Positions 4,101 through 60,989 of a DNA stretch of 64,000 nucleotides are shown here, piece by piece. Source of the stretch: Torpedo marmorata (Eukaryota); assembly GCA_977017645.1 (NCBI GenBank), contig OZ360220.1:289602001-289666000 (forward strand), in the 5' to 3' direction. A program made the translations under genes and the position numbers. The notes below the pieces were generated by a model. The model made no database searches. It saw only the letters and a program-made list of their open reading frames with translations, and was not told the origin of the DNA. Positions within the stretch are counted from its first letter, which is position 1, and every line of letters starts with the position of its first letter.

Positions 4101-4378
4101 TTTGGGGTGGCACAGCACCACTGCCAATAGAATTGCTAACTCTCAGTTTCAGAGACCTGATTTCAATCCTGAAATTCCAGCTCTATGCATGTGGAGTTGG
4201 CAGACATTTTGCCAGTTCATTAAAGAGGATATTGTTGGGGACGTCACGTGATGGAGTAGAGTCAGGGCATAGAAACCCGACTCTCCTGGGACCGTTAAAA
4301 AAAGTTTAATTAAAAAACGTTTTTCTAAAGTTTAAACTTATTTAAAAGTGATATAAAGTTACTAAAGAAAGAATAAGA

Positions 4379-19545: not shown

Positions 19546-20021
19546 TTCGTGATTACAGAATATTTGGGTTGGTGCAAGTGAATGTTAATGGTGCAACCAG
19601 TCATAATTCCAGCAAAATGAATGCAGCTTTGAAAATATAACTTTATACATTCAGAATCTTACTCCTTCAGAACTTAATTATTGTTGATTTTTTCTTTCTT
19701 TCATTTTTCTCTCTGTCTCTTAACCATTCACCCTGTCTTCCTTTCCCTAATCTTCATTGTGTGTACATGTTTTTTTATCGCATGTATAGATTGCGGTTTT
19801 GGCTCCATATAATATTGGTAAGGATTCCCCACTCTGATTGGCTAATGCCACAGGCCTCCCTGGAGGTCACTGAGCTTTTGCATAAAAGTCAACAAGAGCT
19901 GTGTGAGCAGCTGCAGGACCAGTGTAAGGTGGGTGGCTTTCCTTTCCCACTGACACAAAACCCATGCCAGTCCTTTCGGAGTTCTGGCTATTTCCTGTAA
20001 AAAAAAAAAAAAAAATGGGAT

Positions 20022-36463: not shown

Positions 36464-39400
36464 TTTTTCTTTTTTTTATTAAATATTTTATTTTAAATTT
36501 TTAAATCACAAAATACATAAAATAAAATACAAAATTATCAAAATACATGTGATACATTTTCACCACCCCCCCTCCCTCCCCTCCCTAACCCTCCCACCCC
36601 TACTAATCTACTAAAAGGGTGGACTTGGGAGAGCCAGTGGATGTGGTGTATTTGGACTTCCAGAAGGCCTTTGATAAGGTACCGCACGGGAGACTAGTGG
36701 GCAAGATCAGGGAGCATGGTATTGAAGGTAAGGTGCTGACATGGATAGGAAGTTGGTTAAGAAATAGGAAACAAAGGGTTGGGGTAAGCGGGTCTTTTTC
36801 AGGATGGCAGGATGTGACGAGTGGAGTGCCGCAGGGATCGGTGTTGGGTCCTCAGTTGTTTGTCATTTATGTAAATGATTTGGATGATGGGATTATTAAT
36901 AACATGAGCAAATTTGCAGATGACACTAAACTGGGTGGCGGTGTAAAGTGTGAAGAGGATGTCAGGAAAATGCAGAGGGACTTGGACAGGTTGGGGGAGT
37001 GGGCTGAAGAATGGAAGATGAAGTTCAATGTGAGCAAATGTGAGGTTATCCATTTTGGGGGCAGAAATAGGAAAGCTGAGTATTATTTTTAAATGGAGAC
37101 AAGCTAGGGAGTGGGGAAGTGCAAATGGATCTGGGTGTACTTGTTCACCGGTCACTGAAGGCTAACATGCAGGTTCAGAAAGCTGTGAAGAAGGCAAATG
37201 GCATGTTGGCTTTCATAAAGAGGGGATTGGAGTATAGGAGCAGAGACGCCCTTCTGCAGTTGTACAGGGCCCTGGTGAGACCCCACCTGGAGTATTGCGT
37301 CCAATTCTGGTCTCCAAATTTGAGGAAGGACATACTAGCTATAGAGGGTGTGCAGCGCAGATTTACAAGGTTAGTTCCAGGGATGGCAGGGTTGACATAT
37401 GCTGAAAGGTTAGAAAAACTGGACTTATATCCGATGGAGTTTAGAAGGATGAGGGGGGACATGATTGAGGTATACAAAATTATCAAGGGGATAGACAGGG
37501 TGAAGTCAGATTACTTGTTCCCAATGATGGGAGAGACGAGGACTAGAGGGCATAGTTTAAGAATACAGGGAAGGCCCTTTAGGACGGAGATGAGGAAAAA
37601 ATTTTATACCCAGAGAAGTGTGAATCTGTGGAATGCTCTGCCACAGAGGGTGGTAGAGGCAGATTCGCTGATTATGTTCAAAAGAGAGTTAGATAAGACT
37701 CTAGTGGGCAGAGGAGTTAAGGGTTATGGGGATAAGGCTGGTAAGGGGTACTGATAGTAGTGATCAGCCATGATCTGTAAAATGGCGGTGCTGGCTCGAC
37801 GGGCCGAAGGGCCTACTCCAGCTCCTATTGTCTATTGTCTATTGTCTAAAATAAAAAATAAAAAGAAAGAAAGAAAAAGATAGAGTAAGGAGAATGTCAT
37901 AAAAAAGAACAACTATAAACTAATTTTATTGTGGAAGATAGGTTCGCCAGTCAGATCTGATATCCAAAGATCTTCAAATCCTTAAACCAACAGTTTTTAT
38001 ATATGGGCTCCATATTTTCAAAAAGAAATTATATTTATTACGTAAATTATAAGTAATTCTTTCGTGGTATACATGAACGAAGTTCTGCATGCCATTTTCT
38101 AACCCTAAATCTACATCAGATTTCCAAGTAATAGCAATGCATTTCTTAGAAACAGCTAAAACAATTCACAAAAATTCTATTTGATATATATTTAATTTCA
38201 TCTTAATACTAATTCTTTTAATATCTCCAAACAAAAATATCATAGGGTCCATTGGAAGTGTAATACTTAATACCTTATCTAACAAAAATTTAACTTTCAA
38301 CCAAAAATCATATATCTTTGAACAAAACCATGAAGAATGTACAAAAGAACCTTCCTCTCTATAACATCTAAAACATAAACCTGATAATGTTAAATTAAAT
38401 TTATTTAATTTTTTAGGCGTTAAATATAATTGCTGAAAAAAATTATATTGAACTAATCTATATCTAACGTTAATAATCTTCATCATACTTTGTTTACATA
38501 ATTCTTTCCAATGTTCTTCATCTATTGTTACATTCAAATCTGATTCCCATTTTAATCTTGATTTCTGAATTCCTAATTTAGGCATTTTCCTCTGTAACAA
38601 TCTATACATTTGAGAAATAAATTTATTTACACCTCCATTAGTAACTAATAATTCCAGTTCACTCTGTCTTGGTAAAGTCAAACTATAACCCAACTTTCCA
38701 ACAAAAAATGCTCTAATTTGATAATAAGCAAAAAGTGTATTATTCAATACATTAAACTTATCTTTCATTCTTTGAAAAGTAATAAATTTACTAGCTTCAA
38801 AACAATCATTTATTTTCTTAATTCCCTTTTGGAACCAAATTTTAAATAATTGATTATCAACAGTAAATGGAATAAGTTTATTTTGATATAAAGGCATTTT
38901 TCGAGATATCGACCCTTTCCCTCCTATCTCCCTATCCACTCTATTCCATATTTCTAACAAATGTTTAAAAATAGGAGAATTCTTCCCTCTTGTTAATAAT
39001 AATTTAGAATTCCATTTATAAATAGCTTCTTCTTTCAAATCTTCTCCTATATTATTTAGTTCTATTCTAATCCAAGCAGAAGACTTACCTAAATCAAACA
39101 TTTCATTAACAAATTTTAATTAAGCTGCTTTATAATAATTTTGAAAATTAGGAAGTTGTAAACCACCCATTTCATAATTCCAAGTTAATTTCTCCATACC
39201 TACTCTAGCAAACTTTCCTTTCCACAAAAACTTCCTAATAATTAAATTTAAATCCTTAAATAATTTCGAAGGGATTTCGTAAAGAATTGATTGAAAAAGA
39301 TATTGAATTCTTGGAAAGACATTCATTTTAATACAGTTTACCCTTCCTATTAAAGTTACAGGTAAATCCTTCCAACTTTCTAAATCTTTTTTTAATTTTG
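36464..39400 (-). mobile_element. 5'-truncated L1 inserted in the Gmr1-B 3' UTR
   Basis: 12-bp TSD TGAACTATTTTC at 36452-36463 and 39401-39412. ORF2 remnants at 39326-38166 include CFRC..EEGSFVHSSWFC. Confidence 0.9.
36617..37845 (+). mobile_element. Young 5'-truncated CR1 inserted in the L1 3' UTR
   Basis: RT ORFs 36619-37092 and 37119-37754 are separated by one frameshift in a T-run. (TCTATTG)n tail. TSD CTAAAA at 36611-36616 and 37846-37851. Confidence 0.92.
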
Positions 39401-39477: not shown

Positions 39478-40709
39478 CCGTATATTTTGGCGTATAAGTC
39501 GAGTCTTGAAACCCTCATAAATCTCTCAAAAAACGGGGGTCTACTGGCATACCTGACCTCCATAATAGAATTAGTTTATAGATGTATTTTTTTTTTAGAT
39601 TGGCATTCTCCTCTATCCTTTTCTTTCTTCTTATTTTTTCTTCTTTTTCTATTTTTATTTTATTTTTTATTTTTTATTAGATTAGTGGGGTTGGGAGGGT
39701 TGGGGAGGGGAGGGTGGGAGGGGGGGTGAAAATGTATCACAAATATTTTGATGATTTCATATTTTATTTTATGTATTTTGTGATTTAAAAATTTTAAATA
39801 AAATATTTTTTTAAAAAACGGGGGTCGACTTATACGCCGGATATACTTCTGAGACATTAAAATCAGCTCAAAAACTACTCCATGCCGATTCGGCGTATAA
39901 GTCGAACCTTGAAAACATGATTCGGCGTATAAGTCGACCCTTGAAAACCCACTTTGGCGTATAAGTCGACCCATGAAAAACCGATTTGGCATATAGGTCG
40001 ACCCTGGAAGCACCTCCCCACCACCGGCGCCACTGCTCCCCAACACCTCCCCACCGCAGGGCGCCGCCATAAACCACCCAGACATTCTACAATTGTAGAG
40101 CCTGAGGTCACCGCCCCTGCCTGGTAAGCTGAGGCTCCTGGCCGGTAGGGTGAGGTTCCCGCTCCTTCCACGTAGTCCAAGTCCATTCCCGACATGCCAG
40201 GAGAAAGAGGTTGCCACCCCTGCCACGCAAGCCGAGGTCGCCGCTTCTGCTGAGGACAATGGGGTCGCCGCTACTGCCCGGGAGAACGAGGTCGCTGCAC
40301 CTGCCCGGGAACCGACACGTAGCCGTGGTTCCTGCACCGAGCACACTTGGGCAGCGAGGCGACTTCTTTGATGTGGACAGCACCGCACCCGATGTGGAGA
40401 ATGGAGTCACCTGTCGCCAACTCTGGCTGCAGCCGAAGCTGAAGACTTGGACCCAGCTCCGTTTGGCATCTTCCTGGCCAGAAGCAAAGGTTTTTTTTAC
40501 TGTTATATTTTTACTTACTTGCTTAATTTACAGCTTTGTTACTTGGCGATTCGGGTGCTGTAACAAATTTTGGGTTGTTGCTGGGAGGCCCGGACAACCC
40601 AAAAATTGGGGGTCGAGTTATACGCCGGATATACAATAAAACCATTAAAATGAAGCTGAAAAAGGGGGTTGACTTATCCGCGAGTCGACTTATACACCAA
40701 AATATACGG
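39478..40709. mobile_element. Tc1/mariner (Tc2/pogo-like) non-autonomous DNA transposon inserted in the Gmr1-B RNase H
   Basis: TIR CCGTATATTTTGG(C/T)GTATAAGTCGA at both ends with TA duplication. The flanks rejoin as RNase H sequence. Confidence 0.9.
39542..39812 (+). mobile_element. Short L1 3' UTR copy inside the MITE
   Basis: 14-bp TSD AAAAAACGGGGGTC at 39528-39541 and 39813-39826. Inverted homolog of 36464-36616 plus 37846-37900. Confidence 0.85.
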
Positions 40710-40711
40710 TA

Positions 40712-41378
40712 ATTAAATCATATTCTTGCAAAATTAGACTCCAATTTAACAACCGTCGATTCTTATTTTTCATTTTACAGATATACACATCAAAGTGTTG
40801 TAGAGCCAACACAAGAGCTAACAACTCTTTTCTATGGTTGAATAATTCCTTTGATGATCATTGAACTTCTTCGAGAAGTCGGATACCGGATGGTCAATGT
40901 CCTCTTCGTTCTTCCTCTGTAACAGCACCGCACCCACAGCTTCATCGCTGGCATCCACGGCTAAAGAAAATGGCTTTTCTAAATCCGGTGACTTAAGCAC
41001 AGGTTGGTGGCATAAAATGGCTTTCAATTTGACAAATGCTTTCTGACAACCTGTCGACCATACAAATTTTTCTCCCTTTCTAAGCAAATTTGTGAGAGGG
41101 AGCGCAAGATCTGCAAAGTTTTTACAAAAGTTGCGGTAGTAGCCAATCATCTCCAGGAACCTCCTCAGAGTTTTCTTATCAGTTGGAACAGGGAACTCGG
41201 AAATAGTCACAACCTTTGCCTCTACTGGCGCCAACTGCCCCTGACCCACTACATAACCCAGATAAATAACAGTCTCATGTCCAAACTCACTTTTACTTAA
41301 ATTAACTGTGAGATTTGCTTTTGAGTCATTTGAACAATTGTTTTAACTCAAAGACATGCTCTTCCCAGGTGTTACTAC
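40712..41378 (-). pseudogene. Gmr1-B RT C-terminus and RNase H
   Basis: SNTWEEHV...VIYLGYVVGQG, RRFLEMIGYYR, AVDASD, NYSTIEK. Confidence 0.9.
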
Positions 41379-41499
41379 TGTTATGGACCATGACTGACCA
41401 TTTGGACTGCGGACGGTCAGCAGGAAGGATGAATTCTTTTGGAGTATACACTGGGGCCAGGTACTGAAAAAGTTAACTTCCCCAGGACTTGGTGTACCC

Positions 41500-41531
<32 letters not shown>

Positions 41532-42241
41532 TGTGGAATAGATACATTGTTGCACTTTTGCAAAAAGCAGGGGCAGATCTCTGCAAAGCAGACAGTTGTG
41601 AGTTGCAAAGGCTACAGAAAACAGCCAGATTCAGGTTTGTGTGCAGTCAGAGAAAATCTGGCAAAATAGCACATGGCCTCCTGTCTCAGAGAAAAATTCT
41701 GAGAAAAGCAACTTCTGTGGAGAACAGGCGTGAGATCAGCGAGACTAGCTGTGAGATTCAAGCATACGCCTAAATCAGTGGTATACTGATCTGGAACTTG
41801 CAATCCTTATGAACCTACAAGAAGGGGACGTCATCAGAGAAGAAAACAAGTATTTGTAAGCATAATCAGTCATTTGTCTCTCTCCAACGTTCATTCAGAA
41901 GTACTTCTACCAGACCCAGAGGAAAAGTTGAAGCCTGAACTTAGAGAGTAAATTTGTGGACTGTTTATCTTTTTTTTTGACTGACTTGTTGTTTTATGAC
42001 TGACCTGGGGTTTTTGGGGAAAGTTTTTCCATTTTTTCATAAGGGTTGGGCACAGACTGTAATGGTCTGGGCTTTACACACACACACATACACCTTTTAG
42101 ATAAGAATAGAGTTTATAGACGTTTATAGTGGGGTTAATTGTTGTGAAATTATATGTTTACTTGTGTTTAATAAATAATAATTTCAATTTTTACCCCTTT
42201 TGCATTGCGTCTTCTGTCGTTGCTGGTTTGATTCTGTAACA
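41379..42241 (+). repeat. 5' LTR of Gmr1-A (863 bp)
   Basis: TGTTA...TAACA, with AATAAA near 42170. Confidence 0.95.
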
Positions 42242-42244
42242 AAT

Positions 42245-42263
42245 TGGGGGCTCGTTGCGGGAT
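42245..42263 (+). promoter_or_regulatory. Primer binding site, tRNA-Pro-like
   Basis: TGGGGGCTCGTTGCGGGAT versus the canonical TGGGGGCTCGTCCGGGAT. Confidence 0.8.
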
Positions 42264-42374
42264 TTGAATCAAAATCCATCTTGGTAATTGAAGGAATCCC
42301 AGTTTGTTTTAAGGCATTCCTTTTTGGTAAAGCTAATTAAAAGCTAGTGTGTGTGTAACAAAAAACCAGCAACA

Positions 42375-45300
42375 ATGGATGTAGAACATTTTTTGGAATC
42401 ACCTGAACCTGATACTTTAAAAAAGGCGAAAAAGGAACAGTTAGTGGCTATAGCAACAGAGTTGGGCATTGCTTCTGTAAAACCATCTATGAAAAAGGCA
42501 GAGATTGGGAGAAAAATTGTCAAGTACTATATAAAAGAAAAAAAATTGGAGGAGAGCGTGTTAGAGCAGTTTCCCAAGGGTAAACCTTCTGAAAACATAC
42601 AGTTGGAATTAAAGAAATTGGAATTGGAGGCAGCCAGAGAACAAAAGAAATTAGAATTGGACGCAGACAGGGAACAAAAGAACAGGGAATTGGAGGCAGC
42701 CAGAGAAAAAAAGAAATTAGAATTAGAATTGGAATTGGAACGAAGGAAATTAGAATTGGAGGTAACCAGAGAACAGAAGAGATTAGACTTAGAGAACGAG
42801 GAGAAAAATAGGAAATATGAGCTGGAAAAGATGAGGTTGGAAAATGAGAGGAGACAAGAAGAGCGCCAAGATCAAATTCGTCATCCTGCTGAGGGGTTTT
42901 TGGCTAGTAGGGAAGTTAGGTTGGTTCCTCCATTTGAGGAGGCAGAAATAGATAAGTACTTCCAACATTTTGAGAAGGTGGCTGTGAAATTAAAATGGCC
43001 ACAAGACCAATGGTCTCTTATGTTGCAAAGTGTAATAAAAGGAAAAGCCCAGCAAGCTTATTCTACTCTTACCACAGAACAAGCTGCTGATTATGAAACG
43101 GTGAAGAAGGCTATACTCCAGGCTTATGAGTTAGTTCCAGAGGCTTATAGACAGAAGTTTAGAAATCTAAAAAGATCAGCAACCCAATCTTATACAGAGT
43201 TTGCCTATGAAAAAGTTGTGTGTTTTGACAGGTGGTGCACATCTAAGGAAGTAAACAATGATTACAATCAATTGAGAGAATTGATAATAATCGAGGAGGT
43301 AAAAAGGTGTGTTCCTGAGGATATTAAGGTATACTTAGATGAAAAGGAGGTGAAAACTTGGCGAGATTCAGCTAAGTTGGCAGATGGATATGCTTTAACC
43401 CACAAGCCTAAGAGGACGTCAGGTAGAATTTTCCAAAAGGTCACGGTGGATAATCAGAAGCAAGTGGAAAGTAAATTTGGAAGTGGTGTTAAGGAAAGGG
43501 ATGAAGGAAAGTGGAAAAGGGAAAACAATTCAGGTCCCATTTGCCACTACTGTAGAAAGGCTGGTCATATGCTAGCAAGCTGTCCAGTGTTGAAAAAGAA
43601 GAGAGAAAAGGATGCAACACCTAATGCTTGTATTCAGAGTGAGAAGATGCATAACACCCAGGAAGGAGATAAATTTACTGACCAAGTTAAAGATGTATTT
43701 AAACCTTTTGTGACTGATGGTTTTGTTTCAGTTAAGGCAGGATCAAAACAAGTGCCAGTGAAAATCTTGCGAGATACTGGAGCTGCTCAGTCACTTGTGT
43801 TAGATAGTGTCTTGGAATTTTGTGAAGCTACTGACACCGGTGACATAAATTTAATAAAAGGAATTGGTGGTGAAGTTGAGTCCATTCCTTTGCACAAAAT
43901 AGTATTGAACTCAGACTTGGTGGAAGGACCAGTTATAATAGGAGTGAGATCAGAGTTGCCCATAGAAGGAGTCTCACTGTTGTTAGGCAATGACTTGGCC
44001 AAGGGTAAAGTAGTTCCTGCAGTGCGAATGACCACTAAGCCAGTCATTGATAAGTCAGAGAAAGACTCTGATATTTATCCGGCATGTGCCATAACCAGGG
44101 CCATGTCTAAGAAAAATGTCACTGTAGAGAAGGCAGTGGAAAATAACTTAGTGAAAGAAAAAGAAACTGATAATCAAGAAAACCTGGAAAAGATTGAGCA
44201 ATCTCCTATGTTACACCCATCCACTGATAAGACACCTAAAGGCACAGATTTGTCACTATCCCGACAGGAGTTAATAGCAAGGCAAAAAGACGATCCGGAT
44301 CTTGCTGAGGTGAGGGATAAGGTTCTCTCTGAAGAAGAGATTAAAAAGGTGCCAGTAGGGTATTATGGAAAAGATGGGGTGTTGATGAGAAAGTGGAGAC
44401 CACGTGATGTTCCTGCCAATGAAGAATGGGCATTAGTGCAGCAGGTTGTGATCCCTAAAGTATATAGGGATGAAATAATAACTTTGGCTCATAGTACACC
44501 CTTAGGTGGTCATCTTGGGGTGAAGAAAACTATAAGTAAGATAATGAAACAGTTTTATTGGCCCAGTTTGAGAAGGGAGGTTGTAAGCTTTTGCCGGGCC
44601 TGTCACACTTGTCAGGTGGTGGGTAAACCTAATCAGGGTCCCCCGGTGGCACCCTTGCAACCTATCCCTGCGTTTAGTGAGCCTTTCTCGAGAGTAATTG
44701 TGGACTGTGTTGGCCCATTGCCCAAAACCAAAGCGGGGAATGAGTATTTGTTAACAATTATGTGTGCAGCCACCAGATTTCCAGAGGCCATTCCTCTGAG
44801 AAACATAAAAGCAAAGTCAATTGTAAAGGCTATGGTAAAGTTTTTCACCTTGGTAGGTTTGCCAAGGGAAATTCAATCAGATCAGGGCAGTAATTTCATG
44901 TCAGGCGTTTTCCAACAAGTGGTTGATGGACTAGGAGTTAAACAGATTGTATCCTCTGCGTACCATCCAGAAAGTCAAGGGGCTTTGGAGAGGTTCCATT
45001 CGACTTTGAAAACAATGATTAGAACCTATTGTTGTGAGAAGGAAAAGGATTGGGATGAGGGGGTTCATTTGTTGTTATTTGCAGCGAGGGAGTCTGTCCA
45101 AGATTCGCTTGGTTTTAGTCCATTTGAGTTAGTTTTCGGACATGAGGTGAGAGGTCCTTTAAGATTATTAAAAGAACAGTGGATTAATCGTGATGTGCAT
45201 TTAAATCTGTTAGATTATGTTTCCAAATTTAAGGATCGGTTGCATAGGGCTTGTGAGATGGCAAAGGAGAATTTAAAGGCCACTCAACAGAAAATGAAGG

Positions 45301-45641
45301 TTTGGTATGATCGAAAGGCGAAGATGAGAACTTTTAAACCTGGTGAGAACGTATTAGTTCTGTTTCCCATCCATTCAAATCCTCTTAGGGCTAGATTTTT
45401 AGGACCCTATAGAGTTAAGTCAAAAATTAATGAGGTCACCTATGTCATAGAAACACCTCATCGCAGACGAGACACACAGGTCTGTCATGTGAATATGATT
45501 AAGCCATATTTTGAACAGGTGCCTCACAAAGGGACTGAAAATTTACAGAGGTACTGGTTATTGACAGGGGTAAGGAGGAGACAGATAAAACCAGTTTCAG
45601 AGAGGGTCATGGGACTGTTAATTCTTGGAGTTATGTTGTAG
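42375..45641 (+). CDS. Gmr1 Gag-protease-integrase polyprotein (1088 aa from the first ATG)
   Basis: Capsid YFQHFEKVA..WP..W and PEAYRQKFR (SCAN-related); knuckle CHYCRKAGHMLASC; protease LRDTGA; integrase HHCC, DCVG, SDQGSNF, ERFH; GPY. IN before RT defines the Gmr1 group. Confidence 0.93.
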   Translation: MDVEHFLESPEPDTLKKAKKEQLVAIATELGIASVKPSMKKAEIGRKIVKYYIKEKKLEESVLEQFPKGKPSENIQLELKKLELEAAREQKKLELDADREQKNRELEAAREKKKLELELELERRKLELEVTREQKRLDLENEEKNRKYELEKMRLENERRQEERQDQIRHPAEGFLASREVRLVPPFEEAEIDKYFQHFEKVAVKLKWPQDQWSLMLQSVIKGKAQQAYSTLTTEQAADYETVKKAILQAYELVPEAYRQKFRNLKRSATQSYTEFAYEKVVCFDRWCTSKEVNNDYNQLRELIIIEEVKRCVPEDIKVYLDEKEVKTWRDSAKLADGYALTHKPKRTSGRIFQKVTVDNQKQVESKFGSGVKERDEGKWKRENNSGPICHYCRKAGHMLASCPVLKKKREKDATPNACIQSEKMHNTQEGDKFTDQVKDVFKPFVTDGFVSVKAGSKQVPVKILRDTGAAQSLVLDSVLEFCEATDTGDINLIKGIGGEVESIPLHKIVLNSDLVEGPVIIGVRSELPIEGVSLLLGNDLAKGKVVPAVRMTTKPVIDKSEKDSDIYPACAITRAMSKKNVTVEKAVENNLVKEKETDNQENLEKIEQSPMLHPSTDKTPKGTDLSLSRQELIARQKDDPDLAEVRDKVLSEEEIKKVPVGYYGKDGVLMRKWRPRDVPANEEWALVQQVVIPKVYRDEIITLAHSTPLGGHLGVKKTISKIMKQFYWPSLRREVVSFCRACHTCQVVGKPNQGPPVAPLQPIPAFSEPFSRVIVDCVGPLPKTKAGNEYLLTIMCAATRFPEAIPLRNIKAKSIVKAMVKFFTLVGLPREIQSDQGSNFMSGVFQQVVDGLGVKQIVSSAYHPESQGALERFHSTLKTMIRTYCCEKEKDWDEGVHLLLFAARESVQDSLGFSPFELVFGHEVRGPLRLLKEQWINRDVHLNLLDYVSKFKDRLHRACEMAKENLKATQQKMKVWYDRKAKMRTFKPGENVLVLFPIHSNPLRARFLGPYRVKSKINEVTYVIETPHRRRDTQVCHVNMIKPYFEQVPHKGTENLQRYWLLTGVRRRQIKPVSERVMGLLILGVML

Positions 45642-46291
45642 GACAGGGGAAGTTGGCGCCAGTAGAGGCAAAGGTTGTCGCTATTTCCGAGTTCCCTGTT
45701 CCAACTGGTAAGAAAACTCTGAGGAGGTTCCTGGAAATGATTGGCTACTACCGCAAGTTCTGTAAAAACTTTGCTGATCTTGCGCTCCCTCTCACAAATT
45801 TGCTTAGAAAGAAAGAGAAATTTGTATGGTCTACAGGTTGTCAGGAAGCATTTGTCAAATTGAAAGCCATGTTATGCCACCAACCTGTGCTTAAGTCACC
45901 TAATTTAGAACAGTCGTTTTCTTTAGCCGTGGATGCGAGCGATGAAGCTGTGGGTGCGGTGCTGTTACAGAAGAAGAATGAAGAGGACATTGAACATCCG
46001 GTATCCTACTTCTCAAAGAAGTTCAATGATCATCAAAGGAATTATTCAACTATAGAGAAAGAGTTGTTGGCTCTTGTATTGGCTCTACAACATTTTGATG
46101 TGTATATCTGTACAGCTCAAAAACCACTCATAGTGTATACTGACCATAATCCATTGGTTTTTCTTTGTAAAATGAAAAATAAGAATCGACGGTTGTTGAA
46201 TTGGAGTCTAATTTTGCAAGAATATAATTTGGTAATCACTCATATAAAAGGGAGAGATAATGTAATTGCTGATTGTATTTCTAGATGTTAA
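45542..46291 (+). CDS. Open -1 frame: linker, RT thumb/connection and RNase H
   Basis: No stop from 45542 to 46291. RNase H residues in DAS, EKE, TDH and ADC are all present. Confidence 0.8.
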   Translation, partial: FTEVLVIDRGKEETDKTSFREGHGTVNSWSYVVGQGKLAPVEAKVVAISEFPVPTGKKTLRRFLEMIGYYRKFCKNFADLALPLTNLLRKKEKFVWSTGCQEAFVKLKAMLCHQPVLKSPNLEQSFSLAVDASDEAVGAVLLQKKNEEDIEHPVSYFSKKFNDHQRNYSTIEKELLALVLALQHFDVYICTAQKPLIVYTDHNPLVFLCKMKNKNRRLLNWSLILQEYNLVITHIKGRDNVIADCISRC

Positions 46292-46423
46292 ACTTTATTA
46301 ATGAAAAGAGTTCATATTTTGTATTTGTGGATAAACATTGTAGATTTTGTTTATATTCTGACACCTCACTTACTTTCCTAAATTTTGTTCTTGCAGACCA
46401 AAATTTCCTTTGAGGGAGGGAAG

Positions 46424-47285
46424 TGTTATGGACCATGACTGACCATTTGGACTGCGGACGGTCAGCAGGAAGGATGAATTCTTTTGGAGTATACACTGGG
46501 GCCAGGTACTGAAAAAGTTAACTTCCCCAGGACTTGGTGTACCTAGAGAGAGAGAGAGAGACAGACAGACAGACTGTGGAATAGATACATTGTTGCACTT
46601 TTGCAAAAAGCAGGGGCAGATCTCTGCAAAGCAGACAGTTGTGAGTTGCAAAGGCTACAGAAAACAGCCAGATTCAGGTTTGTGTGCAGTCAGAGAAAAT
46701 CTGGCAAAATAGCACATGGCCTCCTGTCTCAGAGAAAAATTCTGAGAAAAGCAACTTCTGTGGAGAACAGGCGTGAGATCAGCGAGACTAGCTGTGAGAT
46801 TCAAGCATACGCCTAAATCAGTGGTATACTGATCTGGAACTTGCAATCCTTATGAACCTACAAGAAGGGGACGTCATCAGAGAAGAAAACAAGTATTTGT
46901 AAGCATAATCAGTCATTTGTCTCTCTCCAACGTTCATTCAGAAGTACTTCTACCAGACCCAGAGGAAAAGTTGAAGCCTGAACTTAGAGAGTAAATTTGT
47001 GGACTGTTTATCTTTTTTTTTTGACTGACTTGTTGTTTTATGACTGACCTGGGGTTTTTGGGGAAAGTTTTTCCATTTTTTCATAAGGGTTGGGCACAGA
47101 CTGTAATGGTCTGGGCTTTACACACACACACATACACCTTTTAGATAAGAATAGAGTTTATAGACGTTTATAGTGGGGTTAATTGTTGTGAAATTATATG
47201 TTTACTTGTGTTTAATAAATAATAATTTCAATTTTTACCCCTTTTGCATTGCGTCTTCTGTCGTTGCTGGTTTGATTCTGTAACA
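46424..47285 (+). repeat. 3' LTR of Gmr1-A (862 bp)
   Basis: Differs from the 5' LTR, by eye, by one substitution, one GA unit and one T. Confidence 0.95.
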
Positions 47286-47289
47286 CTAC

Positions 47290-50200
47290 TTACAATTAAA
47301 TCATCAATCTTCAACCCATGACTTACTGAATTAATCATGCTCTGAAATGTTCCTGGAGCATTCTTCATCCCAAAAGGCATAACATTATAATCATACAGCC
47401 CAAAAGGTGTTACAAATGGAGAAATCTCCCTACCCCTTTTTATCAAAGGAACACACCAGTACCCTTTCAATAAGTCAATTTTAGAAAGAAATTTGGACTT
47501 CCCCCCCCCCCTCATCTATACATTCGTCTATTCTAGGGATAAGAAAAGCATCTGTCTTTGTCACAGCATTTACTTTCCTATAATCAGTGCAAAACCTAAC
47601 TGTTTCATCAGGCTTAGGCACTAAAACACAAGGTGAACTACAATTGGAAGTAGACTTTCGAATGATACTGTTCTTAACATGTAGTCAATTTCCTGATCTA
47701 CCAGTTTTCACTTTTCTGCATTTATCGATATGGATGCTGTTTTATAGGTCTTGCATCTCCTACATCCACATCATGATAAGCTATGGAATTTTTCTGAGGC
47801 ACATCGGGAAATAAATTTATAAATTTTTAAAATAACTGACTCATCTCTTCCTTTTCGGAAGTTTTGAGATGAGCCAACTTTGTCTCCAGATTGCACAAAA
47901 TCATGGAATTTTCTAACCTCGGGCTTATCAATTTCTGTGTCCCATGACCCTCTCTGAAACTGGTTTTATCTGTCTCCTCCTTACCCTGGTCGATAACCAG
48001 CACCTCTGGTAAATGTTCAGTCTCTTTGTGCGGCACCTATTCAAAATATGGCTTAATCATATTCACGTGACAGACCTGTGTGTCTCGTCTGCGATTAGGT
48101 GTTTCTATGACATAAGTGACCTAATTCATTTTAGACTTAACTCTATAGGGTCCTGAAAATCTAGCCCTAAGTGGATTTGAATGTGTGGGAAACAGAACTA
48201 ATACATTCTCACCAGGTTGAAAAGTTCTCATCTTGGCCTTTCGATCATACCAAACCTTCATTCTCTGTTGAGTGGCCTTTAAAGTCTCCTTTGCCATCTC
48301 ACAAGCTTTTTGAAACCGATCCTTAAATTTGGAAACATAATCCAACAGATTTAAATGCACATCACTATTAATTCACTGTTCTTTTAATGACATTAAAGGA
48401 CCTCTCACCTCATGTCCGAAAACTAACTCGAATGGACTAAAACCAAGTGATTCTTGGACAGACTCCCTCGCTGCAAATTACAACAAATGAACCCCATCAT
48501 CCCAATCCTTTTCCTTCTCACAACAATAAGTTCTAATCATGGTTTTCAAAGTCGAATGGAACCTCTCCAAGGCCCCTTGACTTTCTGGATGGTACACAGA
48601 GGATACAATCTGTTTAACTCCCAGTCCATCAACCACTTGTTGAAATACGCCTGACATGAAATTACTACCCTTATCTGATTGAATTTCCCGAGGCACACCT
48701 ACCAAGGTGAAAAACTTTACCATAGCCTTTACAATTGACTTTGCTTTAATGTTTCTCAGAGGAATGGCCTCCGGAAATCTGGTGGCTGCACACATAATTG
48801 TTAACAAATACTCATTCCCCGCTTTGGTTTTGGGCAATGGGCCAACACAGTCCACAATCACTCTCGAGAAAGGCTCACTGAAAGCAGGGATAGGTTGCAA
48901 GGGTGCCACCGGGGGACCCTGATTAGGTTCACCCACCACCTGACAAGTGTGACAGGCCCGGCAAAAGCTTACAACCTCCCTTCTTAAACTGGGCCAATAA
49001 AATTGTTTCATTACCTTATGTATAGTTTTCTTCACCCCAAGGTGACCACCTAAGGGTGTGCTGTGAGCCAAAGTTATTATTGCATCCCTATATACTTTAG
49101 GGATCACAACCTGCTGCACTACTGCCCGTTCTTCATTGGCAGGAACATCACATGGTCTCCACTTTCTCATCAACACCCCATATTTTTCATAATAACCCAC
49201 TGGCACCTTCTTAATCTCCTCTTCAGAGAGAACCTTATCCCTCATCTCAGCAAGATCAGGTTCCTCCTTTTGCCTTGCTATTAGCTCCTGTGGGGATAGT
49301 GACAAATCTGTGTCTTTAGGTGTCTTATTAGTGTATGGGTCTAACACAGGAGATTGCTCAACCTTTTCCAGGTGTTTTTGATTATCACCGACTTTTTCTT
49401 TCAACAATTCATTTTCCACTGCCTTCTCTACAGTGACATTTTTTCTTAGACTTGGCCCTGGTTATGGCACATGCCAGATAAATATCAGAGTCCTTCTCTG
49501 ACTTATCAATGACTGGCTTAGTGGTCATTCGCACTGCAGGAACTACTTTACACTCAGCCAAGTCATTGCCTAGCAACAGTGAGACTCCTTCTACTGGCAA
49601 CTCTGATCTCACTCTTATTATAGCAGGTCCTTCCACCAAGGTGGAGTTCAACACTATTTTGTGCAAAGGAATCACCCCCAATTAATTTAATTAAATTCAT
49701 TTCACCGGTGTCAGTGGCTTCACAAAATTCCAAGACACTATCTAACACAGATGATTGAGCAGCTCCAGTATCTCACAAGATTTTCACTGGAACTTGCTTT
49801 GACCCTGCCTTAACTGAAACAAAACCATCAGTCACAAAAGGTTTAAATGCATCCCTAACTTTGTCAGTAAATGTGTCTCCTTCCTGGGTGTTATGCCTCT
49901 TCTCACTCTGAATACAAGCATTAGGTGTTGCATCCTTTTCTCTCTTCTTTTTCAACACAGGACAGCTTGCTAGCATATGACCAGCCTTCCTACAGTAGTG
50001 GCAAATGGGACCCGAAGGGTTTTCCTTTTTCGACTTCCCTTCATCTCTTCCCTTAACACACTTCCTAATTTACTTTCCACTTGCTTGGGATTATCCATAG
50101 TGCCCTTTTCGAGAATTCTGCCTAACATCCACTTAGGCTTGTGGGTTAAAGCATATTCATCTGCTAATTTAGCTGAATCTTGCTTTTCAACTAAGTAAGC

Positions 50201-52056: not shown

Positions 52057-52639
52057 TGAGAAAGTTGACTCTAAAATGGCATCTAAAGTTGCAAAGTATT
52101 GCGAGACATTTGACCAGAGTAACTTACTTATCGTACATAAATACTTTAAGTGTGATTATATTTAACCTTCTGCTTATACAGAGATACTTAACAAACAAAA
52201 CTGGACAGCTCCTTATCTATTCTAAACTGCACTCTGTACCATGGAGCAAATAACGGTCATAAGGATACGAAAGGATAGTAAAAAACAATTCCTTATGAGG
52301 AGTATGTTTAAATAGGTTAAAACTGCTGGACTACAAAATACGTAATCACGAGTTAGAATGAATGGTCTCGAAACTGCTTATCAGATGGAAGTAGCTGCGT
52401 AAGAAAAACAAGTCCACTTATGGTGCAGCTGAACTTTGTTAATGCTAAGAACTAAGAATGGTATTATAACCTCAGATGTGTTGGCATGCTTTGAGTGGGG
52501 GCTCCAGAGCACAGAGCATATGTGCTTATGCGCAGTGTTGTACTCTGGCCACTCCGATCCAGATCAAGTTGATTAAACTGAGTTGTTCTATTGAACTGTT
52601 GTTGTCCGGTTATTCTCTCTTAGGTAACGAACACTTACA
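52057..52639 (+). repeat. ERV 5' LTR
   Basis: TG...CA; TATA-like motif near 52462; ATTAAA at 52572. About 5% divergent from the 3' LTR by eye. Confidence 0.95.
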
Positions 52640-52640
52640 T

Positions 52641-52658
52641 TGGCGTAGTCGGCAGGAT
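52641..52658 (+). promoter_or_regulatory. ERV primer binding site, tRNA-Ser
   Basis: TGGCGTAGTCGGCAGGAT is the complement of the tRNA-Ser 3' end ATCCTGCCGACTACGCCA (recalled sequence). Confidence 0.9.
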
Positions 52659-53081
52659 TTCACTGGGACAGATGCCGGAGACTGAGTAGGAGGCTGCAGG
52701 TTGCCGGGATTGAAAGAGGAGAAAGGTGAGCTCTAGGTGGACCCTTTGAGACCGACCTCCTAAGGAACCTCCCGGGAATACTGTGGTCCCTCATCCGAGG
52801 TAGATCTGATTCCCTGCCGAAACACAGGAAGAGTGAATACCGGTGAGTAAAAGAATATATATATATTCGGGTAGTGAAAAGGGGAAAACTTGTGGTGCTG
52901 GGGAAGTTGCAGGCAAGAGGCTTGCCAGTGAAAAATCGCAAGCAGTAAGATTTGTTGCTCAGTAAATTAGGATAGGGTCCATCTCTGACACCTTGCCCTA
53001 GAATAGTTGTTAAGAGAGGAAATCCTCCACGCGAAGGTCGGGAACCTGAAGTAGGTGCAAAGGAGATGGACTGAGGGGCTA

Positions 53082-54647
53082 ATGGGAAATAGCCTGGATA
53101 AAAGTGACGGGGGAGAACCCATACAGATAATGTGTTATTTGAAACCTCAATATAATAAAGACTATCGAACCTTAAGTTATTGGTTAACCAAGAGATTAGG
53201 AAACGAGGCCTGACCCATTGGAGGAACATGGAATGTTGAGACAATAAAGAAAGCAATGGATGCGAGGAGTAGGATTTGGGTGAATAATGCATGTAAAAAG
53301 GGTATAGAGATACATGATAAGGAAGGAAAACTCAAAGAATGGAAGGTTCTGGAGGCAGAATGTAAGTGGATAGAGGAGAAGGAAAAGCTTGAGAAAGAAA
53401 GTAATGGTACCAGTAAAGAAAATCTGAGGAAACAGCTAGTTAACAAAAAACGCTAGGAAAAACCACAGACAAGTTCAGCCTCCGGAGACCCCATGTTTGG
53501 CATAACGACCCTAACAATCAGTGATAATGAGAAAGAAGAGGACGATGGATTCCGGGGAAGACCCCCTCCATATGCACCAGTCCAGGCTAACGTAGGACCC
53601 CTATCAGGAGCACAGGGAAAATCATTACATCCTAATATCAGCAATGATGGAGAAGGAGATCTATCACCCTTCCCTAGCATGACTCCTGCCGAGGAGGTAA
53701 AAATACATCCCCGACCACTACACCAGCCTGACAGACTGCAGATGTTCCCACTTAGAACTGTGCCCAACCCTCAGGCAGGCCAAGGGAACCAACCTCTTAA
53801 TGTAGAAATATATTCCCCATAGAAACCCCAGGAATTATGTTTGATTAGAGATAAAGCCCCAAATAAGACTGCGTCGCCTGACGCATTTGTCGATTATTTA
53901 CGATCTACAGTGGAATATTACAGTGCCAATGATCGAGATTTGTGGGGTCTGACAATATCACTATTGACGGTAGCAGAAAAGACTAAATGGAAAAATGCTA
54001 TGAACCTTTAAACTTGGGAGGCAGTCAAAAACATCCCGGCACACAGAGAAGATGTTGGAATTCCCCCCTGTATAAACTTTATGATGGAACATTTAACTAA
54101 TTGTTTAAAACAGCCCATCAATATGTCTAAAGTGATTGATTGTAAGCCAGCTCCACGGGAAGATCCACAGACCTATTTGTCGAAACGTATAAAACCCATG
54201 CCGGAGATAGTGCTTTTAACCGGGGGGGGGGGTGTAATTCGGCACCATTCAATTCGATTCTTATGAGTTGTCTACCCTACAAGCAACAAACAATGATAAA
54301 AACTAATCTGAATTGGGCTGAAAATGACTTGAATCAGATGAGATGCGCTGTGGTTACATTTTGGCCAGAAGCATCCGGAAAGGGACCTGGAGTAGCAGGA
54401 GGAATGGGGATAGGAATTAAAAATGAATATGTGTTGAGAGAAGATGATTTAGCACCTGAGAGGAGGTCCTGGTCGCTCTTTTGGAAACACCGGCCAAAGG
54501 TAGTGGGACTGGAATAAGAATAGGAATAATTGATGTTTCCGATGTGGGAGAGAGGGACATTGGATGAGGGATTGTCTGGCAAGAAGGGGACCGGGACCAG
54601 AAGCACGAAGAACCCCATACTCTGACCATAATCCCTTTCGCCAGTGA
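53082..54647 (+). pseudogene. gag: ERV gag
   Basis: MGNS start, PPPY late domain, QMFPLR capsid start, and CFRCGREGHWMRDC knuckle at 54534-54575. Several stops and frameshifts. Confidence 0.88.
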
Positions 54648-57600
54648 CTCACCTCAGAGTCCCAATGGCATCTCTTTCCCTTGCTGTCTAACACAGATGA
54701 GGAGCCCACTGTAGTAATGAAGTTGGAGGGATTCCGGATTCCATTTATGATTGACACAGGGGTAACAATGTCAACCCTGCGAAATGAGGTTGTGGAACAC
54801 CTACGGATCCCTCTTTCAGGAGAGAAGACTCGACTTTCTGGAATTGATGGCAAGACTAAGGTATACACCTTAACCTATCCGCTGACAGTGGAATTTGAAA
54901 GGAACATGTACACCTTGACCTTTTCCATTACTGCAGGTCTTGATTGTAATATAGCTGGGAGAGACATGCTGATGGGGCTGGGAATTAACATTGAGTGTTC
55001 GGACCAGGGGCTATCTATATACCACCCACGAGCACTGGTTATAAAATTTCCACCACCACAATGGTGGGCGGTTGATTTAATGCCTGCTCCTGAACTAAAG
55101 GGATTGCCCAATCCCCATGTAACCCTGTATTGTGATGCCACTGGTTGCAACGAAGAAATGACTGAATATTTTGAATCCCTCCTTACTAAGCCAGTAATGG
55201 TAACTATCATCGGAGACGTAGCCGGAGATCCAGGAACAGCATTAGTCGCCAGACTGCCGGACGGATTGTGGAAGTTAGATTCGGACCTAACCAGCCCTCA
55301 TGTTACGACCTCCGTAAGTGCTGGACATACACCAAAAGAATTAAGCCATTTGGTCTACACCTTGTTAAATCAGGCTCGACCTAACGACTTTGGAGAGCAA
55401 CACCTTTCGGCTGGAACACTTCGGTTTTGGAAGACACCATGCCTCCTAAATGGGGAGGAATGACATCATCGAGCGGGGAGACCAGAAGACCACGACAACA
55501 AGGGACACTTGTGGTCGGTATCACCTTATGAGGTGGGACTAACTACTTGCGACCCGATCAACATTAAGACACAAGAAGGTGTCACGCTCCCGTCAGTCCC
55601 ACAGTATCCATTGCAAGAGGAAGCAAAGAAAGGAGTAAGAGCACTGATTTATTCGTTGTGACATCAAGGAATTCTGAAGGAATGCCAGTCGCCATGTAAC
55701 ACTCCTATATTTCCAGTGCCTAAAGCAGGACGAACTGAGTGGCGCCTGGTCCAAGATCTACGAGCCATAAACAAGGTGGTAGAACCTGTGCATGCTATTG
55801 TTCCCAATCCTGCAACCATCCTCAGCCAGATTCCTGCGACAGCTATGATTTTCACTGTAGTCGACTTTCAGCATGCTTTCTTTTCGGTTCCCTTACATCC
55901 TGACTGTGAATACCTCTTTTCTTTCACCTATGATAAACGACAATACACCTGGACAAGGCTGCCACAGGACTTTGTGCACTCGCCTACCATTTTTTCACAG
56001 GCTCTAGCGAAACAATTAAGTACATTGACCCTGCCCCGTGAATCCACGATTGAACAGTACGTAGATGACCTTCTACTTGCTAGCAAGACCACCGACGACA
56101 ATATAGCCGATACGGATGTCTTGCTTGAAGCATTACACCAATGGGGCTATGTAATCCCCAAGAGGAAAGTAACCCAGGCACAGCGGGAAGTTAAGTTTCT
56201 GGGAATACGGTTGAGTGCCAAGGAACAGACTCTCACTGAAGATCGTCTACGTCCGATACTGCATCACCCAGCACCTACCACCCCGAAACAGATGCATGCC
56301 TTCCTAGGATTGATCAACTTCTGCTGGCAGGGGATTCCGGACGTGGCAGTATATACCAAGCACCTGTCACCCTACTCCTCAGCAAATGCTCCTCAGACTT
56401 TTGTACTCACTCAGGAAGAATTGAAGATGTTTGTAGAATTAAAAAGGGCTCTTTCCTCAACACCGGTTATAGGGAGGCCCTTGTATGACCGGCCGTTCCA
56501 ACTGTATGTCACAATAATCCAAGACTGTGCATCTGCAGTTCTCACCCAGAAACATGGGGATGTCCGAAGGCCGGTGGCTTACCACTCAGTCCGGTTGGAT
56601 CCGGTTGCACGTGGCTACCCACCTATGCAGCTGTCACTGCAGCATCTAACATTACTCTCCATCATCCTGTGACTGTGTATACAACTCATTGTGTTACAGT
56701 TCTGATGAATTCTGACTTGACCAAATACACGACTATGGCTCGGTTCGGAAGGTATGAAGTAAGCCTTTTATACAATCCTAATTTGACCTTTCAACACTGT
56801 TCTACGATTAACCCCTCTTCCTTCCTCTAATGCCCGCCGGAAGGACTTGTGGATCCACCGCATGATTGTATCCAAGAAAACTCCACTTTAACTAGGGTAA
56901 GGGAAGATCTATTAGATACCCTCCTGCCTGAGCCATGCTCTACATGGTTTGTTGATGGTGTTGCAGGACACAGGGAGAAGAGCTTCCAGATATGTCATGG
57001 TTTGCCAGGACGGAACACTGGTTGAAGATGGAAGATTTGAGAGTTCTCTTTCAGCCCAGCAAACGGAACTCTATGCTTTGACCCGTGCCTGTATTCTAGG
57101 TAAAGACAAGGATGTAAATCTTTATACTGATTCCCGTTATGTTTTCGGAGTTGCCCATGACTTTGGGGCACTATGGCAACACCGAGGGTTTCTGACGTCT
57201 GCAGGGACCCCAATCAAAAATGCCTCCTATGTTATGAATTTGCTGAAGGCCCACACTAGGGGAAACGATGCTGTATCCCAAGGGAATGTGGCAGCGGACA
57301 GAGCGGCTAAGAAAGCTGCAAGCCAGTCCTCGCATTTAGTTCCAACTGAGGGGCAGATCCTGATCAATAGAACGGTTATGCCAAACATGGAAATAACGTT
57401 AAGTAAACAGAGGGACGCCTCTGCCAACGAAATTGATCTATGGAAACAAGAGGGTTGCACCCAAGACTCTCAGACAGGTCTGTGGCTTACCCCCCCCTTG
57501 GACAAGTATGTATACCCGATTCCCTGCTACCCATTATTTTGAATTATTTACATACCCTCACGCATGCTAGAAAGGAGGGAATGATAAGAATGATTGGGGA

Positions 57601-58545
57601 AACATGGTGGCATCCTAAGGTACGGCAAGAGGCACTGCGAGTGGCCTCAGAATGTAAAATTTGCAAAAGAATAAATCCCGGAAAAGCAGTAAAAGGATCT
57701 ACAGGAAATACACCTATGCCATCATGCCCATTTGAATGTATCCAAATTGATTACATAGCAATGCCCAGGGCTCAGTGCTATAAATATTGTTTAGTAATCT
57801 TGGATTTATTTAGCAGATGGATTGAGGCTCTGCCGACCACCAACAACACAGCTGAAACCACGGTAACCCTACTATTAAAGGAAGTAATACCAATATTTGG
57901 GTTACCAACAACTATAAGTTCGGATAATGGCCCATATTTTGTTGCAGTAATAAATAAGGAACTATGTGACTATTTTAAAATAAAGCAACAGTTCCACTGC
58001 GTACATCATCCCCAAGCTGCAGGTGTGGTGGAAAGAGCCAATGGAGTATTGAAAAATGAGGTGACTAAGTTGATAAGGGAAACAGGCAATCATGGATTAA
58101 GGTACTGCCTCTCGCCCTGTTTGAAATGAGGGTCACTCCTCATGGCACCACCAGAATCTCCCCTGCTGAAGTACTTCATGGAAGACCACTGAGGACTCCC
58201 TGGGGAGCAGAGAAAAACGGGCTAGGAACATTGGACTTACATGCACTCAGTGATGAATTAATCACCTATGTGAAGCAACTAACTCATACTTTGTCAGTAT
58301 TGCACTCACAGGTAAAGGATTCGCAGAGACCTTGTGATGAACCGGAGAGAGACAAAGGGCATCTTCTGCAACCAGGCGACTATGTGTTAATCCGAAATTG
58401 GGACAAAAAGAGACTGGGAGATCGGTGGAACGGACCGTTCCAAGTACGACTCACCACCCCGACAGCAGTAAAGGTTGAAGGCAATTCACGGTGGATACAC
58501 GTTACAGACTGTAAGAGGATCGGTGGAAGACACCAACCCACATGA
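54648..58545 (+). pseudogene. pol: ERV pol: protease, 2H-like domain, RT, RNase H, integrase
   Basis: IDTG; SPCNTPIFPVPK, WRLVQDLRAIN, YTWTRLPQ, QYVDDLLL; WFVDG, SAQQTEL, YTDSRY; HHCC, QIDYI, SDNG, VERAN; WNGPF. Confidence 0.95.
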
Positions 58546-58758
58546 TGAAGGGAACACTTGCCTACTATGGACTTGCATGCTCAATTCTATCATTAACCTT
58601 TGCTCTACAACATAACTTGTTTTATCAAACGCATAACCTTTTATATGGTAATCGCACGGTATGTTACCCATTAGCCAGGTCAGTAAGAACGTTGTTTGCA
58701 GCATCCCCTGTTAGTTATCCCTTTGAAACACTGGTCAAGGGAAGTAATAATAGTCATT

Positions 58759-59063
58759 ATTCACCTGTCCTTCCTGTTTTTTTCCACCCACCCAGCCATC
58801 CCTCCTCCCCCTCTTTGCTGCTGTCCCCTCCCTCCTTTCTCCACCTATCATCTCCTGCCTTTCCCACCCCCCTTCCCCCCTCACTCCTTTGTTCGGACGT
58901 CTGCCGGCATTTTCTCATACTTTGATGAAGGGCTCAAGCCCGAAACGTCGGTTATGTATTTCTACCTTTGCTACATAAAAGACACTGTTTGACCTGCTGA
59001 GTTCTCCAGCTTTTGTGTTTTTTACTTCAACCACGGTGTCTACAGATTTTCATGTTTACTTTT
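58759..59063 (+). mobile_element. Penelope 3' fragment in env
   Basis: Reverse complement of 462-730. 14-bp TSD TAATAATAGTCATT at 58745-58758 and 59064-59077. Confidence 0.92.
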
Positions 59064-60047
59064 TAATAATAGTCATTGCCAAGGTACTGACGGTACCTTC
59101 TTGGTGGGAGGAAGGGGCCACTGTTGGTCTATACGACCACCCTGGCACACGGAAAAAAATAATACATGTCAATTGGGGTACCATTTTAAGGAATATTACC
59201 CTACTCCAATACCCGACGCACCCACCACCAAGAAAATAAGAAATGCCAATTTGAGCACGATAAAGGGACTAGCTATCTATCCCCTTTGCCACGATGGGAC
59301 TGGTTGGGCCTGTGTGCTTGTGAACGTTACCCAAAATTACACCTGCGTGGAACAGCATTGCACAGGAGGCTATGGCTGTGGTCTTCGGGGCAGTGTCTTC
59401 ACCTGCCAGTGCCTAAAATGGCAATGCTTAAATCTAGCTTCCGGGTTGCAGATGGTATGTGGGCAGAGTAACAGGACCCACCTGACCAGGGGAAACCTAA
59501 CCTTCTCCGATCCCTCCTGGACCTTTTATTATAAGTATAATAGGGACCACCAGCCAACTTCCTACAATAATACCTGCTACCGGATGAAGAAGGGATAGGT
59601 TTTCCTTTTTAATGGAACCTTTACAACAGCCACGAGACGACTACCTACCTATTTTGCAATTGGTGTGCTTGGTCCTATTACTGTTCCTTGTCCTAATAAG
59701 GCCTGGGCTAATCAACGTATCGTTGCCAGGTCTGCTAGTAAAGAATTTTGTGAGGACTGGAAAAACCCCAAAACCTTGGGATCACCAGTAGGCTATGGGA
59801 TCTTAAGTTCAATAACCCTTGGTGGAACTGCCAGCGTTATATCTACTAAAAAAATCGTAATTACCTTATCTGCGGCCTGACGCTTCTCGGAAACGAGATA
59901 ACTGCCACCATAGATGATATTAACAAAGAGCTCTCCGAACTCTGTTTGTATGCCCAGCAAAATCGATATGCCCTTGATTACCTCCTTGTTCAACAGGGAG
60001 AAGACGGTGTTTGCACCATTATTGGAGACAAATGTATTACCAATATA

Positions 60048-60127
60048 TTACACTGTTTGACCTGCTGAGTTCTCCAGCTTTTGTGTTTTTTACTCTAACC
60101 ACGGTGTCTACAGATTTTCGTGTTTAC
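60048..60127 (+). mobile_element. 80-bp Penelope 3' fragment in env
   Basis: Matches 58983-59060. 11-bp TSD TTACCAATATA at 60037-60047 and 60128-60138. Confidence 0.9.
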
Positions 60128-60378
60128 TTACCAATATAAGGGATCATTCATATAATATTTCTGAGCATATTGACCATATTAGGACATATGTTGATAGTCT
60201 CTGTGAAGGCCCACAAGTATGGTGGCCTTTCAACTGGCTGGGAAACCTATGGGGAAAGATGGTGCATTATGGGACTATCTTATTGCTTATTATTATTATC
60301 TTGCTTCTGCTTCGCTGTGTGGTACCAATCTTCAGAAGTCTGTGTGATATGAGGAAACTGTAGTTATCATATAATGAT

Positions 60379-60391
60379 AAAAGGGGGGGAA
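60379..60391 (+). promoter_or_regulatory. ERV polypurine tract
   Basis: AAAAGGGGGGGAA immediately before the 3' LTR. Confidence 0.92.
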
Positions 60392-60989
60392 TGAGAAAGT
60401 TGACTCTAAAATGGCATCTAAAGTTGCAAAGCATTGCGAGACGTTTGACCAGAGTAACTTACTTATAGTACATAAATACTTTAAGTGTGATTAGATTTAA
60501 CCTTCTGCTTATACAGAGATACTTAACAAAAACTAGACAGCTCGTTATCTATTCTAAACTGCACTCTGTACCATGGAGCAAATAACGGTCATAAGGATAT
60601 GAAAGGATAGTAAAAAAAAACTCCTTATGAGGAGTATGTTTAAATTGGTTCAAACTGCTAGACTACAAAATACGTAATCACGAGTTAAAATGAATGGTCT
60701 CGAAACTGTTTATCAGATGGAAGTAAAAAGATGTAAGAAAAACAAGTCCACTTATGGTGCAGCTGAACTTTGTTACTGACTAATGTATTTAAGTGCTAAG
60801 AACTAAGAATGGTATAAAAACCTCAGATGTGTAGGCATACTTTGAGTGGGGGCTCCAGAGCACGGAGCATATGTGCTTTTGCTCAGTGTTGTACTCTGGC
60901 CACTCCGATCGGATCAAGTTGATTAAACCGAGTTGTTCTATTGAACTGTTGTTGTCCAGTTATTCTCTCTTAGGTAACGAACTTTTACA
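60392..60989 (+). repeat. ERV 3' LTR
   Basis: Direct repeat of 52057-52639; TATAAAA near 60813. Confidence 0.95.

Follow-up and report, generated by a model that had tools for sequence, protein, structure and literature searches.

The 64,000-nt window analysed here (Torpedo marmorata, assembly GCA_977017645.1, contig OZ360220.1, positions 289,602,001 to 289,666,000 of the forward strand; coordinates below count from its first letter) carries on its + strand, at 41379-47285, a recently inserted Gmr1-like retrotransposon of the Ty3/gypsy type, here called element A. Long terminal repeats (LTRs), a primer binding site (PBS), a polypurine tract (PPT), a target-site duplication (TSD) and an open structural reading frame (ORF) are all present in A, albeit the PBS matches imperfectly beyond its first 11 nt, and the core of one enzyme, reverse transcriptase (RT), is missing. 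A lies inside the RT of an older sister element, B, on the opposite strand. The features on which the argument rests are as follows, PR and IN standing for protease and integrase.

35459-61065, - strand: sister element B, dead, with nested insertions, its LTRs 5.2% apart
41272-41378, - strand: 3' part of the RT of B, absent from A
41375-41378, + strand: left TSD of A, 4 bp, with identical letters at 47286-47289
41379-42241, + strand: 5' LTR of A, 863 nt, TG..CA, with one substitution and two slips against the 3' LTR
42245-42263, + strand: PBS, tRNA-Pro-like, imperfect beyond its first 11 nt
42375-45641, + strand: ORF1, 1088 aa, Gag-PR-IN followed by 31 out-of-frame codons, no internal stop
45545-45546, + strand: frame break, A being one base shorter than B in their alignment, ~70 nt before the join
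45605-45615, + strand: join of the deletion within an imperfect 11-nt repeat, RT core gone
45617-46291, + strand: open frame for the RT thumb and RNase H, 224 codons, detached from ORF1
45621-45629, + strand: five mismatches to B within 9 nt, altering the conserved YLG motif at the RT end
46412-46423, + strand: PPT, 12 purines adjoining the 3' LTR
46424-47285, + strand: 3' LTR of A, 862 nt
47286-47289, + strand: right TSD, matching the left copy
47290-47938, - strand: 5' part of the broken RT of B, absent from A (RVT_1 match, E 9.8e-10)

The two LTRs of A have TG..CA ends and lie within the 4-bp TSD. They differ by one substitution, a 2-nt slip in a microsatellite and a 1-nt slip in a T run, which bears out the near identity of the LTRs claimed in an earlier interpretation made from the letters of the window (the sequence-only reading). 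The PBS was judged by eye against the PBS-Pro core of murine leukaemia virus in the available part of PMC4587795. The unbroken 1088-aa Gag-PR-IN frame, claimed in the same reading, was likewise recovered stop-free, with a SCAN-like capsid (aa 255-344; PF02023, E 7.7e-11), a CCHC motif (aa 390-403), a protease DTG motif at aa 467, and an integrase comprising H2C2 (aa 693-749), core (rve, aa 770-865) and SH3 (SH3_Tf2-1, aa 999-1045) domains with a D-D-E motif. The domains are of the Ty3/gypsy rather than the copia type, and follow one another in A as PR, IN, RT thumb and RNase H (Integrase_H2C2, SH3_Tf2-1 and RT_RNaseH matches). The Gag coiled coil contains a 33-nt tandem repeat (42605-42802), in which A exceeds B by 123 nt.

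A inserted within the RT of B, just after the damaged catalytic motif of the latter. The two elements share the PBS type and the domain order, and their internal parts are ~90-94% identical. In contrast to A, B carries many stops and indels, and 40 of 773 sites distinguish its own two LTRs, which are only ~75% identical to those of A; B is thus no candidate for a present helper. B has RT (RVT_1 match) between IN and RNase H. Over IN and RNase H, A is also ~70-77% identical to full-length, single-ORF relatives, sawfish proteins among them.

The comparison of A with B confirmed the loss of RT sequence and its join in an imperfect repeat: 756 bp of B are absent from A, a figure counted against a copy with indels of its own, and against the full-length sawfish protein P0168 ~257 codons are missing by hand count, a loss that takes in almost the entire Pfam RT core (P0168 residues 1211-1368). 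The two flanks that meet at the join are identical in B at 9 of 11 nt. As such a match was reached by a fraction of only 0.0023 of random joins within A, the deletion was likely made by a homology-guided jump. Jumps of this kind arise by template switching in reverse transcription or by microhomology-mediated repair. Immediately beyond the join, the cluster of five mismatches in 9 nt is the sole such window among 3486, the background mismatch being 6.6%, and three of its codons are derived in A relative to five of five outgroups. We rejected a templated filler as its origin, as every other place in the window has at least five mismatches to 45614-45633. The sequence-only reading had cited divergence beside the join as a sign of the age of the deletion. 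The divergence is there, but with a cluster so tight, a single event linked to the deletion is a likelier source than elapsed time, and the cluster therefore does not date the deletion.

The deletion had also been described as clean and in frame. The linker 5' of the join and the thumb 3' of it do share one frame (45539-46291), but this frame is not that of ORF1, from which it is separated by the break at 45545-45546. Because A is one base short there, the last 31 codons of ORF1 are out of frame and end in a stop at 45639-45641. In B, IN, linker and RT are read in a single frame, and the full-length relatives likewise have one continuous frame; A has no such ORF reaching across RT and RNase H, its RT core being gone and its frame broken. 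The RNase H of A, noted earlier as open with its catalytic residues, is indeed open to 46291 but cut off from ORF1. Since this break lies between ORF1 and RNase H, and no frameshift stimulator was found, the earlier suggestion that A possibly makes its own RNase H is unlikely to hold. Judged from its frames, A can supply Gag, PR and IN, but probably not RNase H; for the first three, the earlier claim remains reasonable, as the frame is open and few derived changes have accumulated in IN (see below). Both A and B encode Glu at 45734-45736, a thumb column at least 90% conserved in 25 relatives.

To see whether A belongs to a family, we consider contigs from sequencing runs. Of the 24 runs listed, 21 contain part of the stretch, and contigs of four (X1, X2, X3 and X7) were aligned to 42250-47935 at 88% likeness; X1 may stem from the same sample as the window, and X7 may be a run of RNA. 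Contigs passing from 45615 into RT were found in X1, X2 and X3; RT-bearing relatives therefore exist in three of the four runs examined. Long contigs of X2, with a likeness to A of 97.7-98.8%, span gag, PR, IN and RNase H at depths of 28.7-36.2, and the one contig running from 45615 into RT has a depth of 8.94 (0.25-0.31 of the IN and RNase H contigs). RT depth is likewise 0.20-0.34 of that of IN and RNase H in X7, and the RT bins of X1 stand at 0.28 of its IN bins. Contig depth is not copy number and cannot rank the parts of a gene, and we read this deficit as faintly suggesting a subfamily without RT. The share of depth with the longer, unbroken form at 45545 is 100% for X2, 39% for X1 and 10% for X7, X3 having no cover there, albeit short contigs clipped near this site may inflate the apparent share of the broken form. 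These proportions fit a deletion that came first and a frame break that came later. X1 contigs skip parts of the 33-nt tandem repeat in Gag (42605-42802). Across 44900-46420, eight runs from seven coded organisms hold at least a fifth of the sampled words, and the contigs of three other organisms mostly show 96-99% likeness to A, which either recent spread among relatives or horizontal transfer would produce.

Changes on the branch of A bear on when the deletion arose. From the single LTR substitution, ~2.4 internal substitutions (0.06-13.5) are expected since insertion; A carries the deletion, the frame break and the five-mismatch cluster, and differs from more than 94% of the X1 depth at at least 13 coding sites among the 40 of 572 variant rows listed. 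The earlier claim that the deletion predates the insertion gains from this excess of changes over the ~2.4 expected, but not from the divergence next to the join, which is weak for dating. Depending on the outgroup (n = 5), IN shows two to four amino acid changes derived in A over 418 sites (15-21 derived in B), and the thumb-RNase H part six to ten over 186-187 sites (three to seven in B); the contrast between the two regions in A gives a Fisher P of 0.0008-0.04. IN thus appeared to be constrained on the branch of A, a branch that also covers time before the deletion, and any relaxation of RNase H would be mild at most. The pairwise ratios of nonsynonymous to synonymous divergence between A and B (0.27 for gag, 0.27 for PR, 0.21 for IN and 0.19-0.20 for thumb-RNase H) mix pre-deletion time with the decay of B, and are no test of semi-autonomy.

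We consider it somewhat better than an even chance (a probability of about 0.55) that A is a young copy of a semi-autonomous, RT-less Gmr1-like subfamily, for which RT-RNase H is provided in trans. An ancestral copy would have lost RT by a jump between the two imperfect 11-nt repeats, either through a template switch in reverse transcription or through microhomology-mediated repair, and the first product would have been an in-frame fusion of IN, linker, thumb and RNase H, from which a later one-base loss in the line of A detached RNase H. The RNA of A may then be translated into Gag-PR-IN, favouring its own packaging, and this protein may co-assemble with the polyprotein of RT-bearing relatives, the putative source of RT and RNase H that would copy the RNA before its integration as a new copy. 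The Gmr1 order, with IN ahead of RT, would allow RT-RNase H to be dropped from the end with IN untouched. If the parental RNA was already deleted, the need for borrowed RT follows from the anatomy of A. The earlier claim of RT borrowed in trans thus agrees with the anatomy on that condition and with the presence of RT-bearing relatives, but its extension to a family draws on contig depth; a deletion shared by a family is plausible but unproven.

A number of observations weigh against this interpretation. Just six of 13 changes private to A are synonymous (P 0.05-0.17), the contrast between IN and RNase H falls to a Fisher P of 0.016-0.31 without the three codons at the join, and the RNase H of A is no outlier, departing at three of 93 columns whose conservation in 25 full-length relatives is 90% or more (control median, three). 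As for the runs, the RT reference is the degenerate B, close to the 88% threshold; the RT bins of X3 (11.9, 2.58 and 5.35) are to be set against IN contigs of 10.7-12.4, and its join bin of 7.04 leaves, by hand sum, little room for a bridging contig. A piece of ~34 nt in X2, with a depth of 27, raises the RT site at 47497 to 36.3, equal to the RNase H depth, though this piece probably stems from another family. No contig bridging the join was found among the records listed for the four runs. Finally, P0114, a 1406-aa ENA protein with Gag-PR-IN-RNase H in frame, no RT hit and breakpoints other than those of A, is the sole RT-less form among the 15 members listed of its cluster, in which full-length members measure 1644 and 1655 aa, so that lone deletions of this shape may occur. 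P0114 itself is possibly an independent in-frame loss of RT or a gene-calling artefact. Among 120 relatives, 57 have IN, RT and RNase H in one protein, two (P0114 and P0037) give an IN and RNase H signal with almost no RT and one has a partial RT, a gene-prediction artefact being possible in such cases. Two 1058-aa sawfish proteins, considered as Gag-PR-IN-only forms, were rejected, being pieces from PR to RNase H with RT.

Such lone cases bring up an ordinary defective copy, in which the deletion and the mismatch cluster arose in the reverse transcription that gave rise to A or in its immediate parent, an RT-bearing element gave all proteins, and no descendants followed. We hold this to be unlikely overall, albeit a serious competitor. 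The significant microhomology at the join and the confinement of changes to one 9-nt cluster, as from a single error-prone event, are what it predicts; no second instance of the join was seen in the contigs listed or in the searches of metagenome, viral and protein collections, and newly inserted elements dead on arrival are the theme of a section in the accessible part of PMC9744471. In those searches, the 21-nt join pattern gave no match in metagenome and viral contigs, and a near-identical join protein was absent both at 137-438 aa (nine distant hits among 13 candidates) and at 30-136 aa, in collections where the host is not expected. A defective one-off sits poorly, however, with RT depth below that of IN and RNase H in X1, X2 and X7, with the 90% of X7 depth at 45545 that lacks the longer form, and with the lean of A-derived changes towards thumb-RNase H. 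The microhomology would also suit an autonomous copy that, once inserted, lost its RT in the chromosome through microhomology-mediated repair, and an open ORF1 beside an open RNase H frame is expected of any very young copy. Nevertheless, with room for ~2 internal changes since insertion, the deletion, the frame break and the cluster are unlikely to fit in that time, and we regard this course of events as highly improbable.

An equally doubtful alternative keeps A closer to autonomy: a -1 ribosomal slip at 45539-45545 would yield RNase H, leaving only the polymerase to be borrowed. An XXXYYYZ slippery-type heptamer does lie in frame at the break, no stop interrupts the -1 frame between that point and 46291, and the conserved RNase H columns are kept. 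But ORF1 contains five such heptamers, 0.15 being expected by chance in the overlap; downstream folds were no better than shuffles in four of four windows (z -0.27 to 1.29; pseudoknots lie outside the model), and Gmr elements use a single ORF, according to the part of PMC11117352 available. A programmed -1 frameshift site is therefore unsupported, the heptamer having no stimulatory structure beyond shuffles. Least probable of all is an assembly error at the join or the frame break: it would account for the lack of a bridging contig among the records listed, and has against it the clean TSD, the unbroken 3.3-kb ORF, the microhomology where the deletion closes, and a local mismatch cluster with no counterpart in the rest of the window. 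Beyond a semi-autonomous subfamily as such, it is tempting to speculate, although we rate it at well under an even chance, that several animal species related to one another share an RT-less Gmr1 lineage, which is about three times as numerous as its RT-bearing helper, keeps Gag-PR-IN under selection, and is seen at two points of its history: first with IN and RNase H fused in frame, as suggested by X2, and later with the frame broken, as in A and perhaps X7. In the boldest version of this idea, remodelled join codons or the slippery heptamer would keep RNase H in use, and the polymerase alone would be borrowed.

Comparison with described elements places A as follows. The Gmr1 order of SCAN-like capsid, PR, IN and RT-RNase H is given in the accessible part of 10.1101/2025.03.03.638093, SCAN is present in more than half of frog Gmr elements in the portion available of PMC4131045, and pufferfish Gmr elements have one fused ORF of 1506-1634 aa in that of PMC11117352. 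A has the PR-IN-RT-RNase H order and the SCAN-like capsid of these elements, but, unlike them, a deleted RT core and an out-of-frame RNase H. According to the sections available of PMC6466679, the mouse intracisternal A-particle (IAP) 1delta1 is an internally deleted, non-autonomous element that receives proteins in trans, is helped in cis by its own product, and accounts for most new IAP insertions. A is likewise internally deleted and predicted to need proteins in trans. Nevertheless, IAP 1delta1 is an endogenous retrovirus in which a 1.9-kb deletion fuses gag to pol, whereas A retains the whole of Gag, PR and IN, and any cis effect in A is putative. The plant elements TR-GAG, RLG_Sabrina_SA and RLG_WHAM retain Gag, alone or with protease, in an open frame and depend on other elements for their enzymes, as described in the available parts of PMC9744471 and PMC13570524; these semi-autonomous elements lack RT and IN or hold only decayed pieces of pol, while A, unlike the TR-GAG type, retains an integrase whose frame is open and whose motifs are present. 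In the literature searched, none of the titles listed dealt with a Gmr1 family lacking RT, most subscription papers and repeat databases lying outside the search.

If the deletion is shared, A would represent an animal Ty3/gypsy semi-autonomous family that keeps integrase and drops RT-RNase H alone. It would be a natural experiment for telling cis-acting retrotransposon proteins from those that an element can borrow, and families of this sort escape surveys in which an RT domain is required. A unique join would make A an ordinary defective young copy.

The remainder of the window holds further repeats. A broken endogenous-retrovirus-like element at 52057-60990, with PR, RT, two types of RNase H and IN on the + strand and direct repeats 94-97% alike, splits the 5' LTR of B, the first ~75 nt of which lie at 61065-60992. 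An insert at 39478-40709, flanked by TA and ending in short inverted repeats, interrupts the end of the RNase H of B; we take it to be of the Tc1/mariner type. A 370-codon open frame at 4352-5464 resembles ORF1 proteins of the long interspersed nuclear element (LINE) LINE-1 (atlas scores 0.93-0.95), and two mutually similar frames at 5912-6988 and 38166-39119 resemble, by eye, C-terminal parts of LINE ORF2. A weak GIY-YIG match under the Pfam cut-off lies at 756-1493, perhaps a Penelope-like remnant, and 19173-19570 is a tandem array of ~18-nt units with open frames on both strands.

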